NCBI RefSeq assembly: GCF_013167455.1
Contig: NZ_CP038331.1
Reading direction: 5' to 3' (one strand)
DNA: 6,675 nucleotides
DNA from: Escherichia coli O157:H7
GTDB lineage: Bacteria; Pseudomonadota; Gammaproteobacteria; Enterobacterales; Enterobacteriaceae
This document shows positions 1 through 6,675 of the stretch, piece by piece. The number at the start of each line of letters is the position of its first letter. Positions within the stretch are counted from its first letter, which is position 1. The position numbers and the translations under genes are program-made. Below the pieces are notes generated by a model. It worked only from the letters and a program-made list of their open reading frames with translations, did no database searches and was not told the origin of the DNA.

Positions 1-24
1 TTTAAAAGTCAAAGAGGTGTTTTT

Positions 25-2118
25 ATGAGTGATTACGAAGGTAGTGGTCCGACAGAAGGTATTGATTATGGGCACTCGATGGTCGTGTGGCCGTCAACAG
101 GACTGATTTCGGGTGGTGATGTGAAACCAGGAGGCTCATCAGGTATCGCTCCATCCATGCCTCCGGGATGGGGGGATTACAGCCCACAGGGTATCGCACT
201 TGTACAAAGTGTTCTTTTTCCGGGAATTATTCGCCGGATTATTCTGGATAAGGAACTTGAAGAGGGAGACTGGTCGGGATGGTCTGTCAGTGTGCATAGC
301 CCTTGGGGAAACGAGAAAGTTTCCGCTGCACGAACAGTTCTTGAGAATGGTTTACGTGGTGGTTTGCCAGAACCGTCTCGCCCGGCTGCTGTTTCTTTTG
401 CCCGTCTGGAGCCTGCTTCCGGAAATGAGCAAAAAATTATTCGTCTTATGGTTACACAGCAACTGGAACAGGTAACGGATATTCCGGTCAGCCAGTTACC
501 AGCAGCGGGTAATAATGTACCGGTGAAATATCGTCTGATGGACCTTATGCAGAACGGTACGCAATATATGGCTATTATCGGAGGTATTCCGATGACAGTG
601 CCGGTAGTTGATGCCGTTCCAGTTCCGGACCGGAGTCGTCCGGGAACAAATATTAAAGATGTTTACAGTGCCCCTGTATCACCAAATCTACCGGACCTGG
701 TATTAAGTGTGGGTCAGATGAATACTCCGGTTCTGTCTAATCCCGAAATTCAGGAAGAAGGAGTTATTGCTGAGACAGGTAATTATGTTGAGGCTGGTTA
801 TACGATGTCCAGTAATAATCATGATGTCATTGTTCGTTTTCCTGAAGGCAGTGGTGTTTCTCCGTTATATATTTCAACTGTAGAGATTCTGGACAGTAAT
901 GGTCTGAGTCAGCGTCAGGAAGCCGAAAATAAAGCAAAGGATGATTTCAGAGTCAAGAAAGAAGAAGCGGTAGCCCGGGCTGAAGCTGAAAAAGCAAAAG
1001 CCGAGTTATTTAGTAAAGCAGGTGTGAACCAGCCTCCTGTATATACACAGGAAATGATGGAAAGGGCTAATTCAGTAATGAATGAGCAGGGAGCTCTTGT
1101 TCTGAATAACACTGCCAGTTCTGTACAACTGGCGATGACCGGAACTGGTGTCTGGACTGCTGCTGGTGATATTGCAGGCAACATAAGCAAGTTTTTCAGT
1201 AATGCTCTGGAGAAAGTAACCATACCCGAAGTGAGTCCCCTGCTTATGCGGATTTCTCTTGGTGCTCTGTGGTTTCATTCAGAAGAAGCTGGAGCAGGAA
1301 GTGATATCGTGCCGGGGCGAAATCTGGAGGCGATGTTTTCGCTGAGTGCTCAGATGTTGGCTGGACAGGGCGTGGTCATTGAACCTGGTGCGACGAGTGT
1401 AAATCTGCCTGTTCGTGGACAATTGATAAACAGTAACGGGCAATTAGCTCTGGATTTACTGAAAACAGGGAATGAAAGTATCCCAGCTGCGGTTCCTGTT
1501 CTTAATGCTGTCCGTGATACAGCAACAGGACTGGATAAAATCACGTTACCAGCAGTAGTAGGCGCACCTTCCCGGACGATTCTGGTTAATCCGGTACCAC
1601 AACCTTCGGTGCCAACAGATACAGGTAATCATCAACCCGTTCCGGTTACACCAGTGCATACAGGAACGGAAGTAAAACCGGTCGAAATGCCAGTAACGAC
1701 GATTACTCCTGTTTCTGATGTTGGTGGACTACGAGATTTTATTTACTGGCGTCCTGATGCTGCTGGGACTGGTGTTGAAGCTGTTTATGTGATGCTTAAT
1801 GATCCTCTGGATTCAGGGCGATTTTCGCGTAAACAACTTGATAAAAAATATAAACATGCTGGTGATTTTGGTATTAGTGATACAAAAAAGAATCGTGAAA
1901 CTCTTACTAAATTCAGGGATGCTATTGAGGAGCATTTATCGGATAAGGATACAGTAGAGAAAGGAACATACCGAAGAGAAAAAGGTTCAAAAGTTTATTT
2001 TAATCCTAATACGATGAATGTGGTTATAATTAAGTCAAATGGTGAGTTCTTATCTGGGTGGAAAATAAATCCAGATGCGGATAATGGTCGAATTTATTTA
2101 GAGACAGGTGAACTATGA
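25..2118 (+). CDS. cda: Colicin D, tRNA-specific RNase bacteriocin (697 aa)
   Basis: Uninterrupted 697-codon ORF; AGAGG Shine-Dalgarno at 13-17, ATG at 25. N-terminus [23 protein letters not shown] matches the colicin B/D translocation domain as I recall it, with a TonB-box-like SMVVWP at residues 18-23. C-terminus KKYKH611AGDFG...FLS677GW679 matches the colicin D tRNase active-site residues I recall (K608, K610, H611, S677, W679); His611 codon CAT at 1855-1857. No hydrophobic pore-forming hairpin. Followed by a co-oriented immunity gene, as in nuclease colicins. Recognised by recall, not by search. Confidence 0.93.
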
Positions 2119-2378
2119 ACAAGATGGCAATGATCGATTTGGCGAAATTATTTTTAGCTTCGAAAATTACAGCAATTGAGTTTTCAGAGCGAATTTGTGT
2201 TGAACGGAGAAGATTGTATGGTGTTAAGGATTTGTCTCCGAATATATTAAATTGTGGGGAAGAGTTGTTTATGGCTGCTGAGCGATTTGAGCCTGATGCA
2301 GATAGGGCTGATTATGAAATTGATGATAATGGACTTAAGGTTGAGGTCCGATCTATCTTGGAAAAATTTAAATTATAA
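2115..2378 (+). CDS. cdi: Colicin D immunity protein (ImmD), 87 aa
   Basis: ATG overlaps the cda stop in an ATGA arrangement (2115-2118), implying translational coupling. Small acidic 87-aa protein, same strand, AT-rich like the tRNase domain. AGGTG Shine-Dalgarno at 2106-2110. Confidence 0.88.
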
Positions 2379-2435
2379 TCATGAGTGATTTTAATATCTG
2401 GCATTTAAGTATAAATGTCAGATATTCACTCATGA
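2379..2435 (+). repeat. Imperfect inverted repeat (stem-loop) between immunity and lysis genes
   Basis: TCATGAGTGA at 2379-2388 pairs with TCACTCATGA at 2426-2435, a perfect 10-bp reverse complement. A second stem, ATATCTG 2394-2400 with CAGATAT 2419-2425, lies inside it, leaving a 5-nt bulge and an 18-nt AT-rich loop. It starts 1 nt after the cdi stop and ends 2 nt before the cdl Shine-Dalgarno; no U-tract follows. Confidence 0.6.
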
Positions 2436-2447
2436 CAAGGAGATGTC

Positions 2448-2618
2448 ATGAAAAAAAAGATAGGGGGATCTATGATTCTCGTTCTTGCTGTTTTGTGTCT
2501 GACTGCTTGCCAAGCTAACTATGTAAGGGATGTTCAGGGTGGAACAATTGCTCCATCATCATCTTCGAAACTAATCGGGGTGGCGGTTCAGTGAAAAATA
2601 TTAAAGGATCTTCTTGAG
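2448..2618 (+). CDS. cdl: Colicin lysis (bacteriocin release) lipoprotein; 56 aa as read, with an aberrant C-terminal tail
   Basis: AAGGAG Shine-Dalgarno at 2437-2442, ATG at 2448. Translation [56 protein letters not shown]; lipobox LTAC with Cys21; the mature N-terminus [13 protein letters not shown] is the conserved colicin lysis-protein core (compare ColE1 Kil and ColE2 CelB from memory). The ORF is below the length cutoff of the supplied track. The tail is out of register with the family (see finding). Confidence 0.8.
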
Positions 2619-2643
2619 ATCCTTTTTTTCTGCGCGTAATCTG
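2615..2643 (+). promoter_or_regulatory. RNA II (replication primer) promoter
   Basis: -35 TTGAGA at 2615-2620, 17-bp T-rich spacer, -10-like hexamer around 2638-2643. Position and flanking sequence (AAAGGATCTTCTTGAGATCCTTTTTTTCTGCGCGTAA) are nearly identical to the pMB1/ColE1 RNA II promoter region as I recall it. Exact -10 register not resolved. Confidence 0.7.
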
Positions 2644-2653
2644 CTGCCTGTAA

Positions 2654-2760
2654 ACGAAAAAACCCGCCTTGTGGCGGGTCCTTCCGTCCGATCAGAAGTC
2701 TTCGACCTCTTCTAATCGGCGGTGGTAACTGGCTTGGAGGAGCACAGTCACCAAAACTGT
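2654..2760 (-). ncRNA. RNAI: RNA I antisense copy-number control RNA (about 107 nt)
   Basis: Minus-strand 5' end ACAGTTTTGGTGACTG at 2760 (compare pMB1 RNA I 5' ACAGTATTTGG). Ends in a terminator hairpin ACCCGCC/GGCGGGT (2662-2668 / 2673-2679, read on the minus strand) followed by a U-run encoded by the A-run at 2655-2661. Fully complementary to the 5' part of RNA II. Confidence 0.75.
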
Positions 2761-2767
2761 CTTTTCA

Positions 2768-2796
2768 GTTTAGCCTTAACTGGTTCATAACTTCAA
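2768..2796 (-). promoter_or_regulatory. RNA I promoter
   Basis: On the minus strand: -35 TTGAAG (complement of 2791-2796), 17-bp spacer, -10 CTAAAC (complement of 2768-2773), with the start 7 nt downstream at 2760. Same layout as the pMB1 RNA I promoter (TTGAAG -35). Confidence 0.65.
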
Positions 2797-6035: not shown

Positions 6036-6053
6036 GCTGAATAGCTATGCATA
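6036..6053 (+). promoter_or_regulatory. Candidate ArgR box of the cer-like site
   Basis: GCTGAATAGCTATGCATA matches the ARG box consensus TNTGAATWWWWATTCANW at about 12 of 16 defined positions. It is centred about 106 bp upstream of the XerC arm, the spacing expected for cer-type accessory sequences. Confidence 0.45.
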
Positions 6054-6150
6054 CGGTTAAAATTTATCAGGTGCGATCGCGGCAGCTTTTCGGGTGGTTT
6101 GTTGCCATTTTTACCTGTCAGCAGCCGTGATCGCGCTGAACGCATTTCAG

Positions 6151-6179
6151 CGGTGCGTACAATAAGGGGTTATGTTAAA
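6151..6179 (+). other. cer-like XerC/XerD recombination core site (plasmid multimer resolution)
   Basis: GGTGCGTACAA (XerC arm, identical to the ColE1 cer arm as recalled), TAAGGGG (7-bp central region), TTATGTTAAAT (XerD arm, identical to the dif XerD arm as recalled). Confidence 0.75.
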
Positions 6180-6190
6180 TAACCCTTAGC

Positions 6191-6436
6191 TTAGCGGCGG
6201 CGCAGTGGTTGCCAGGTGAAGGTGTCATCCGGGTCCTGTCCGGCAGTCAGTGTGGCTTCTCGATTTTTGCTGGCCGTTCGTTCATCAAGAATGGCTTTAA
6301 GTATCCGTGCCCGGAGGCGTCGCTTTGTTTCCTGCGGCATTTTGTCCTTTTTCGTCAGCCCCATGGCACGAGCTTCAGCGGCAATGGCTTCTGCCAGTCG
6401 GCGCTCTTCGGCTTCGGTCAGTCTATGGCGTTTCAT
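6191..6436 (-). CDS. Hypothetical small basic protein (81 aa), function unknown
   Basis: Minus-strand ORF with GGAG 6 nt upstream of ATG at 6436 (an alternative in-frame ATG at 6466 has no Shine-Dalgarno). Protein-like composition (MKRHRLTEAEERRLAEAIAAEARAMGLTKKDKMPQETKRRLRARILKAILDE..., Arg/Lys-rich, predicted helical), whereas the overlapping plus-strand ORFs translate to Cys/Phe/Gly-rich low-plausibility sequence. No family recognised from memory. Confidence 0.45.
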   Translation of the reverse strand: MKRHRLTEAEERRLAEAIAAEARAMGLTKKDKMPQETKRRLRARILKAILDERTASKNREATLTAGQDPDDTFTWQPLRRR

Positions 6437-6589
6437 GGTGGTCTCCGGGTGTTTCTCTGGTGTCATAACAGTTTAACTGTTGGCTCTCTCCTTATGCTAA
6501 TCAGCCTTCTTTCATGCCTGTTGCCATTGAGTTTAAGAATGATTGGTTGTTTTTCTTGAGCGTTTTCACAAAAACGTAAATCCAGTGGG

Positions 6590-6618
6590 TTGACAGGATT
6601 TACGAGGTGACGTAACTT
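6590..6618 (+). promoter_or_regulatory. Colicin operon sigma70 promoter (serves cda across the circular junction)
   Basis: -35 TTGACA at 6590-6595, 17-bp spacer, -10 TAACTT at 6613-6618. LexA boxes lie immediately downstream and the cda ribosome-binding site and ATG are at the window start, so the layout implies a circular molecule. Confidence 0.65.
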
Positions 6619-6620
6619 TT

Positions 6621-6655
6621 TACTGTACATAAAACCAGTGGTTTTATGTACAGTT
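6621..6655 (+). promoter_or_regulatory. Tandem overlapping LexA (SOS) boxes
   Basis: TACTGTACATAAAACCAGTGGTTTTATGTACAGT: box 1 CTGT-N8-CCAG (6623-6638) overlapping box 2 ending ACAG (6650-6653). Nearly the same as the ColE1 cea dual SOS operator CTGTATATAAAACCAGTGGTTATATGTACAG as I recall it. Confidence 0.85.
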
Positions 6656-6675
6656 TGTTGTTTTTAACGCATTGT

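Follow-up and report, generated by a model that had tools for sequence, protein, structure and literature searches.

The plasmid pColD157 was reportedly described by Hofinger, Karch and Schmidt (1998, J Clin Microbiol 36:24) and is said to have been sequenced in that year. It is listed as a 6,675-bp colicin plasmid of the enterohaemorrhagic Escherichia coli (EHEC) O157:H7 strain CL40cu, with the accession Y10412, and is credited to Hofinger et al. (PMC10758439). The stretch of DNA analyzed here, E. coli O157:H7 contig NZ_CP038331.1 (6675 bases, 50.2% G+C; "the window" denotes this whole stretch), agrees with the published length and colicin D content of pColD157, and its sequence was compared with relatives in RefSeq. 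The window is almost certainly one full circular copy of the known pColD157-type colicin D plasmid, opened between the SOS promoter of the colicin gene cda and the ribosome-binding site (RBS) of that gene. A circular replicon of about 6.675 kb and a cda-cdi-cdl operon, the latter being the defining feature of the type (PMC10758439), were both found. The plasmid type is already known and is ordinary, and the name and length given in the original prediction agree with the colicin D plasmid Y10412 (PMC10758439).

Two other described systems resemble parts of the window. ColE1 (NC_001371.1) has a backbone of replication functions, rom, oriT and mbe genes that is 79% identical over 2508-5055, a multimer-resolution site cer that is 90% identical, and a colicin promoter, dual LexA boxes, leader and RBS of the same architecture. 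The cargo is different: the window encodes the tRNase colicin D, and its immunity gene overlaps the toxin gene and runs in the same direction, whereas in ColE1 the toxin is the pore-forming colicin E1 and the immunity gene is opposed to it. Furthermore, the exc1/exc2 genes of ColE1 are replaced by an open reading frame (ORF) of 81 codons, orf81, in the window, the RNAI loops of the two plasmids have diverged, and the central region of cer comprises 7 nucleotides (nt) in the window and 8 nt in ColE1. The second system, the colicin B operon of large pColBM-type plasmids, is 88-94% identical in the promoter, the leader and the first ~967 nt of the toxin gene, but it encodes a pore-forming killing domain instead of the tRNase found in the window, belongs to a large IncF replicon and has no orf81 upstream.

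Full-length relatives and larger forms

Over 100 complete circular plasmids of E. coli, all of them 6673-6676 bp long, matched the full length of the window (100%) at 99.4-99.8% identity. In the E. coli complete-genome set, 109 genomes contained 80% or more of the window, plasmid-borne in every case, as did 37 records of PLSDB. The plasmids came from O157:H7, O111, O103 and other Shiga-toxin-producing E. coli (STEC) strains reported by many laboratories. Most matches were split in two pieces because the corresponding records are opened elsewhere on the circle. Relatives such as NZ_CP075005.1, NZ_AP019766.1, NZ_CP038400.1 and NC_013368.1 have the gene content and gene order of the window at 99.4-99.8% identity over the circle, and the relatives are annotated with colicin D, immunity, lysis, Rop, MobC, MbeA, MbeB and MbeD genes. 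The search of the whole window proposed in the original prediction therefore found circular plasmids that equal the window in length, are nearly identical to it and are linearized at other points, and the claim of a complete circular plasmid was supported by these relatives, in most of which the junction of the two window ends is internal.

Two near-best records were aligned with the window base by base and differed from it by 12-16 substitutions, the best identity among the matches listed being 99.8%. After rotation, NZ_CP075005.1 (6675 bp) showed 12 substitutions and 0 indels, while NZ_AP019766.1 (6674 bp) showed 15 substitutions and one 1-nt deletion in the A-run at 5983. Seven positions of the window (488, 3468, 3485, 3998, 4112, 4764 and 5625) differed from both records, and the change at position 488 gives V155 instead of A155 in the Cda protein. 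The exact Cda protein of the window was found on 12 NCBI contigs from draft genomes, where it is named 'colicin-D'. Because this exact protein recurs, sequencing error was rejected as the source of the private differences in cda, and the variant is a natural allele of a real lineage, at least within cda.

A rival reading is that the window is a single repeat unit of a longer DNA molecule (a plasmid multimer, a cointegrate or a composite resembling plasmid pN10b) and not a free 6.7-kb circle. Larger or altered derivatives do exist, including the 13,349-bp dimer NZ_CP127305.1, which is twice the unit, an 8,502-bp form bearing an IS91-family transposase, a 7,072-bp variant, and pN10b itself (NZ_JBUBMA010000003.1, 23,411 bp), a ColK/ColD composite with two complete ColD units and a colicin K segment. 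These derivatives are rare, however, and only in them was the segment seen inside a larger replicon with other flanks, the finding that the original prediction had named as contrary to its reading. By far most records, contributed by many laboratories and covering many serotypes, are monomeric circles of 6673-6676 bp, the window holds one of each module with ends that abut without overlap or gap, and a cer site for multimer resolution is present. An origin from a larger molecule is thus very improbable. Integration into the chromosome was rejected, since the chromosomal matches (109 'places') are fragments, located at remnants of ColE1-type origins, that cover no more than 4-5% of the window.

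As a separate observation on pN10b, its ColD units carry cda-cdi-cdl, rop, mobC and mbeA and its ColK segment carries cka, cki and exc2, with one copy of cda directly after cki. The record represents a ColK-ColD cointegrate or multimer, or otherwise an artefact of long-read assembly.

The junction between the window ends

The features on both sides of the cut point were as follows.

6556..6571 (+): conserved TTGAGCGTTTTCACAA, from the alignment to ColE1
6590..6618 (+): cda promoter, with the -35 element TTGACA at 6590-6595, a 17-bp spacer and the -10 element TAACTT at 6613-6618, aligning with TTGACA...TAGCTT of ColE1
6622..6654 (+): two putative LexA boxes overlapping by one base, a perfect 16+16-nt palindrome with a counterpart in ColE1
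6655..6675 (+): proximal cda leader TTGTTGTTTTTAACGCATTGT, continuing into position 1
1..24 (+): distal cda leader, continuing from 6675, with the RBS AAAGAGGTG at 11-19; the ColE1 cea leader is identical across the junction
25..2118 (+): cda, colicin D, 697 aa, identified by Pfam, PDB and an exact NCBI protein

The cut point lies 21 nt past the LexA operator and 24 nt before the cda start codon. The original prediction had started from a promoter and LexA boxes at 6590-6655 that lack a downstream gene within the window and from a cda gene that has an RBS and no promoter, and both descriptions were accurate, with only 21 nt between the palindrome and the window end and only the 24 nt of distal leader before the ATG. 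The joined sequence across 6675 and 1 reads AACGCATTGTTTTAAAAGTC; the junction string quoted in the prediction was exact and mirrors the promoter-to-RBS arrangement of the ColE1 cea gene. The joined stretch from promoter to ATG is colinear with the cea control region (NC_001371.1) without rearrangement, and the elements common to both are an upstream block TTGAgCGTTTTCACAAAAA, the -35 and -10 elements, the dual LexA palindrome, the T-rich leader and 22 identical nt over the junction (ATTGT before the cut and TTTAAAAGTCAAAGAGG after it), a likeness that is not due to chance. In colicin B plasmids, positions 6551-6675 plus 1-300 of the window aligned as one BLAST piece with 88% identity.

The junction was also found directly in other plasmids, being uninterrupted internal sequence in dozens of independently assembled circular records. 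An 80-mer over the junction was present exactly and internally in NZ_AP019766.1 and NZ_CP075005.1. A 600-nt probe comprising the last 300 and the first 300 bases gave a one-piece match in 89 records at a coverage of at least 80%, and all 13 full-coverage records in the listed sample, which are opened at many different positions, matched it at 99.8-100%. Since NZ_CP075005.1 shows no indel after rotation, no bases are lost or doubled at the junction. A further alternative, an incomplete or mis-joined linear contig with bases lost or doubled at its ends, for which no support was found and which was considered only since the window ends split a functional unit, is hardly credible in view of this rotated alignment, the exact 80-mer in two records and a repeat search of the window that found no direct or terminal repeat linking its ends.

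Single-piece matches of 1-6675 revealed at least four RefSeq plasmids that open at the window's own first base, which points to a starting position taken over from one record to the next; the cut reflects how records are kept and has no biological meaning. Two more RefSeq plasmids open at the cda ATG. Positions 1-6 of the window form a DraI site (TTTAAA), one of two, with the other at 2367.

The cda promoter was assigned because it is homologous to the ColE1 cea promoter. A consensus promoter scan of the window did not flag it, since its -10 element TAACTT matches the consensus at only 3 of 6 positions. The ColE1 stretch aligning with 6556-6571 is presumably the CRP site of the cea promoter, and a putative CRP site is placed here accordingly. 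The LexA-box-like 16-mers CTGTACATAAAACCAG (6623-6638) and GTGGTTTTATGTACAG (6638-6653) were called as LexA boxes because of the perfect 16/16 palindrome and the alignment to ColE1, whereas the strict pattern CTGT-N9-CAG gave 2 matches versus 0.79 expected and is uninformative by itself. For colicin promoters, experiments have established a pair of overlapping LexA targets at which RNA polymerase is blocked (PMC4482635), and the same SOS-colicin architecture, a sigma-70 promoter overlapped by two putative LexA boxes upstream of a toxin gene, is present in the window. The cda transcription start would be located just past the -10 element, within the first LexA box. The original prediction had stated that the plasmid was linearized inside the colicin 5′ untranslated region; the cut between promoter and RBS was observed as stated, while its position inside the untranslated leader of cda is probable because the transcription start is placed there by homology. 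As a side observation, the double LexA operator (6622-6664) also scores as intrinsic-terminator-like, with a 15-bp stem followed by TTGTTGTTTT; were it transcribed, the cda mRNA would begin with a hairpin and a U-rich tail. The arrangement in ColE1 is the same.

Several points weigh against the pColD157-type reading. An identity with the type record Y10412 is presumed from the published description and the RefSeq relatives. The window is identical to no compared record and carries at least 12 substitutions relative to the records aligned base by base. In a few records the ColD unit is dimeric, bears an IS91 insertion or forms part of a composite. That this molecule is circular, where transcription starts, that LexA binds and that the colicin is active are all inferences. 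Against these points stand the full-length relatives and the internal junction, on which the window is read as a single pColD157-type circle.

Modules of the circle

One each of RNAI (by Rfam), Rop, relaxase, colicin/immunity/lysis set and cer was found in the window, and the original prediction had counted its one replication module, one mobilization operon, one cer site and one colicin operon correctly. Its inventory was right for the modules listed and omitted orf81 (6191-6436, minus strand). A scan of the window found no tRNA genes. An ORF at 5705-5974 had no family match and was treated as probably not a gene.

The colicin D operon continues downstream of cda with the following features.

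2115..2378 (+): cdi, colicin D immunity, 87 aa; Pfam Colicin_immun, PDB 1v74_B at E=9.8e-53 over residues 1-87
2379..2435 (+): cdi-cdl hairpin of 57 nt; -29.1 kcal/mol, z = -6.5, 0 of 200 shuffles equally stable
2448..2594 (+): cdl, lysis (release) lipoprotein, 48 aa, lipobox LTAC; Pfam Lysis_col E=5.5e-22
2603..2633 (+): terminator-like hairpin and T-run at the end of the colicin operon, with the hairpin at 2603-2625 (10-bp stem) followed by TTTTTCTG; identical in ColE1

The Cda protein contains the Pfam domains Cloacin (1-309), Pyocin_S (455-590) and Colicin_D (604-684), and it matches the PDB entries 5znm (Colicin-D, E=2.6e-254), 1v74_A and, over residues 1-359, 1rh1 (colicin B). Its N-terminal translocation and receptor part is common with colicin B, and its C-terminal part is the tRNase domain. 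The ATG of cdi overlaps the cda stop codon (ATGA). The hairpin between cdi and cdl fills the spacer, ends 3 nt short of the cdl Shine-Dalgarno sequence and is not followed by a T-run, which suggests attenuation or translation control of cdl rather than simple termination; it is likely one of the partial terminators or translation-control elements that colicin operons typically contain. The sequence AAGGAG lies 5 nt upstream of the cdl ATG at 2448, and the 48-aa product is exactly equal to UniProt O52991, 'Lysis protein for colicin'. The cdl gene of RefSeq encodes 40 aa from the internal ATG at 2472 (2472-2594), with loss of the MKKK n-region of the lipoprotein signal peptide.

The replication module comprises three features, namely an RNAI gene opposite the 5′ end of RNAII, an origin homologous to that of ColE1, and Rom, as in a ColE1-type (ColRNAI) replicon.

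2654..2759 (-): RNAI, antisense copy-number regulator; Rfam RF00106, 54.7 bits (gathering threshold 47), full length 1-102
2652..3245 (+): RNAII primer region and ColE1-type origin, from a colinear alignment to ColE1, with approximate ends
3641..3832 (-): rom/rop, 63 aa, GTG start; Pfam Rop E=9.3e-37 and RefSeq annotation in homologous records

The origin itself would lie near 3210-3245, an approximate position placed by homology.

The mobilization genes have the ColE1-type layout, in which mbeC is located upstream and mbeB and mbeD are nested in mbeA, together with a ColE1-like oriT.

3430..3560 (-): oriT/bom region; nick region TTAAGCCAGTATACACTCCGCTATCGCTACGTGACTGGGTCA identical to ColE1, with an identical stretch around 3489-3530
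3876..4223 (+): mbeC, MobC-family relaxosome accessory protein; Pfam MobC, NikA-like, with GGAGG before 3876
4213..5811 (+): mbeA, relaxase, 532 aa; NCBIfam relax_MbeA_E1, 714 bits (cut-off 500)
4901..5461 (+): mbeB, 186 aa, within mbeA in another frame; Pfam MbeB_N E=7e-24
5468..5701 (+): mbeD, 77 aa, within mbeA in another frame; Pfam MbeD_MobD E=6e-36, NCBIfam plas_excl_MbeD 123.5 bits

The stretch 3488-3556 is common to many small mobilizable plasmids, and the putative nick position is that of the bom sites of ColE1 and pBR322. The mbeC product has 115 aa from the ATG at 3876 or 107 aa from the ATG at 3900, the latter being the RefSeq annotation. Residues Y19, H97, E104 and N106 of the HEN-motif group are present in MbeA, and presumably act as the catalytic tyrosine and the H-E-N motif, as in MbeA of ColE1. 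RefSeq also annotates a 62-aa hypothetical protein (WP_024177148.1) at 3301-3489 (+), over oriT/bom between the origin and rom. This call is probably spurious because it has no family match and overlaps conserved cis-acting sequence.

The site for multimer resolution lies downstream of the mobilization genes.

6034..6180 (+): cer, 89.9% identical over 147 nt to the ColE1 cer region 3792-3938

Its XerC arm GGTGCGTACAA (6152-6162) and XerD arm TTATGTTAAAT (6170-6180), each of 11 nt, stand beside accessory sequence, which in cer-type sites amounts to about 180 bp, and enclose the 7-nt central region TAAGGGG. The XerD arm agrees in sequence with that of dif/psi (TTATGTTAAAT) and differs from TTATGGTAAAT. 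The 8-nt central region of ColE1 cer (TTAAGGGA) was not found at this site. Xer sites with spacers of 6-8 nt are known, the 7-nt core is conserved in ColD plasmids, with matches of at least 99% in 31 plasmid records, and it is a variant that is no bar to the assignment as a cer-type site.

The plasmid is also a mosaic. The backbone from the origin to cer (2593-6180) is 97.1% identical to most of the 4,428-bp NZ_JBSWBK010000007.1, which carries an E492-group microcin. Positions 6551-6675 plus 1-967, with the promoter, the leader and the first part of cda, have 88-94% identity to colicin B genes of large plasmids. One module ends with the lysis gene, and further boundaries lie at the cer core and inside cda.

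The orf81 gene and the probable operation of the plasmid

Alone among the parts of the plasmid, orf81, which diverges from cda, has no assigned role.

6191..6436 (-): orf81, 81 aa, between cer and the colicin promoter; RefSeq hypothetical protein WP_000820629.1
Homologues: L005, 2429-2674; L006, 2420-2668; L007, 2426-2671

The highly charged product had no match in Pfam (even at E<=10), NCBIfam or PHROGs. Its homologues have 68-90% amino acid identity, and orf81 is very probably a real gene because they keep the reading frame with ratios of nonsynonymous to synonymous substitution (dN/dS) of 0.10-0.44 in the comparison with three homologues, indicating purifying selection. The same slot is occupied in three small plasmids, where the gene ends beside the Xer core site and diverges from an SOS-type bacteriocin promoter; the toxins are colicin D here, a cloacin-like tRNase in pKA04-6 of Klebsiella aerogenes and pesticin in p28NP3 of Salmonella diarizonae. 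This Xer and bacteriocin-promoter context is missing around a fourth homologue, which is carried by an IncF plasmid of 119 kb. The AlphaFold (AF2) model built from four sequences was a two-helix hairpin with a mean predicted local distance difference test (pLDDT) score of 72.6, and it had no fold match in the PDB at E<=0.001. A ribbon-helix-helix reading made by eye was supported by no tool and was rejected. That orf81 encodes an undescribed small helical regulator, of either the divergent bacteriocin promoter or cer/Xer function, is a speculative and unlikely proposal.

Following the ColE1 and colicin paradigm, the steps by which the plasmid may operate can be outlined. With the circle closed, cda-cdi-cdl would be transcribed from the SOS promoter at 6590-6654, and LexA bound to the two overlapping boxes would block RNA polymerase. 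DNA damage would lead to LexA cleavage, upon which colicin D would be made in complex with Cdi, and read-through of the cdi-cdl hairpin may then yield the lysis lipoprotein and toxin release. The colicin B-like N-terminal part would serve in uptake, and the C-terminal domain is predicted to cleave tRNA-Arg. Replication would be primed by RNAII and checked by the antisense RNAI and Rom, multimers would be resolved by XerCD at cer, and MbeA, together with MbeB, MbeC and MbeD, would nick oriT for mobilization by a co-resident conjugative plasmid.

Reading the window as a circle explains a promoter seemingly without a gene and a gene seemingly without a promoter, and keeps the two ends from being counted as unrelated anomalies. 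Among STEC the plasmid is common as an accessory replicon, and the finding matters little.

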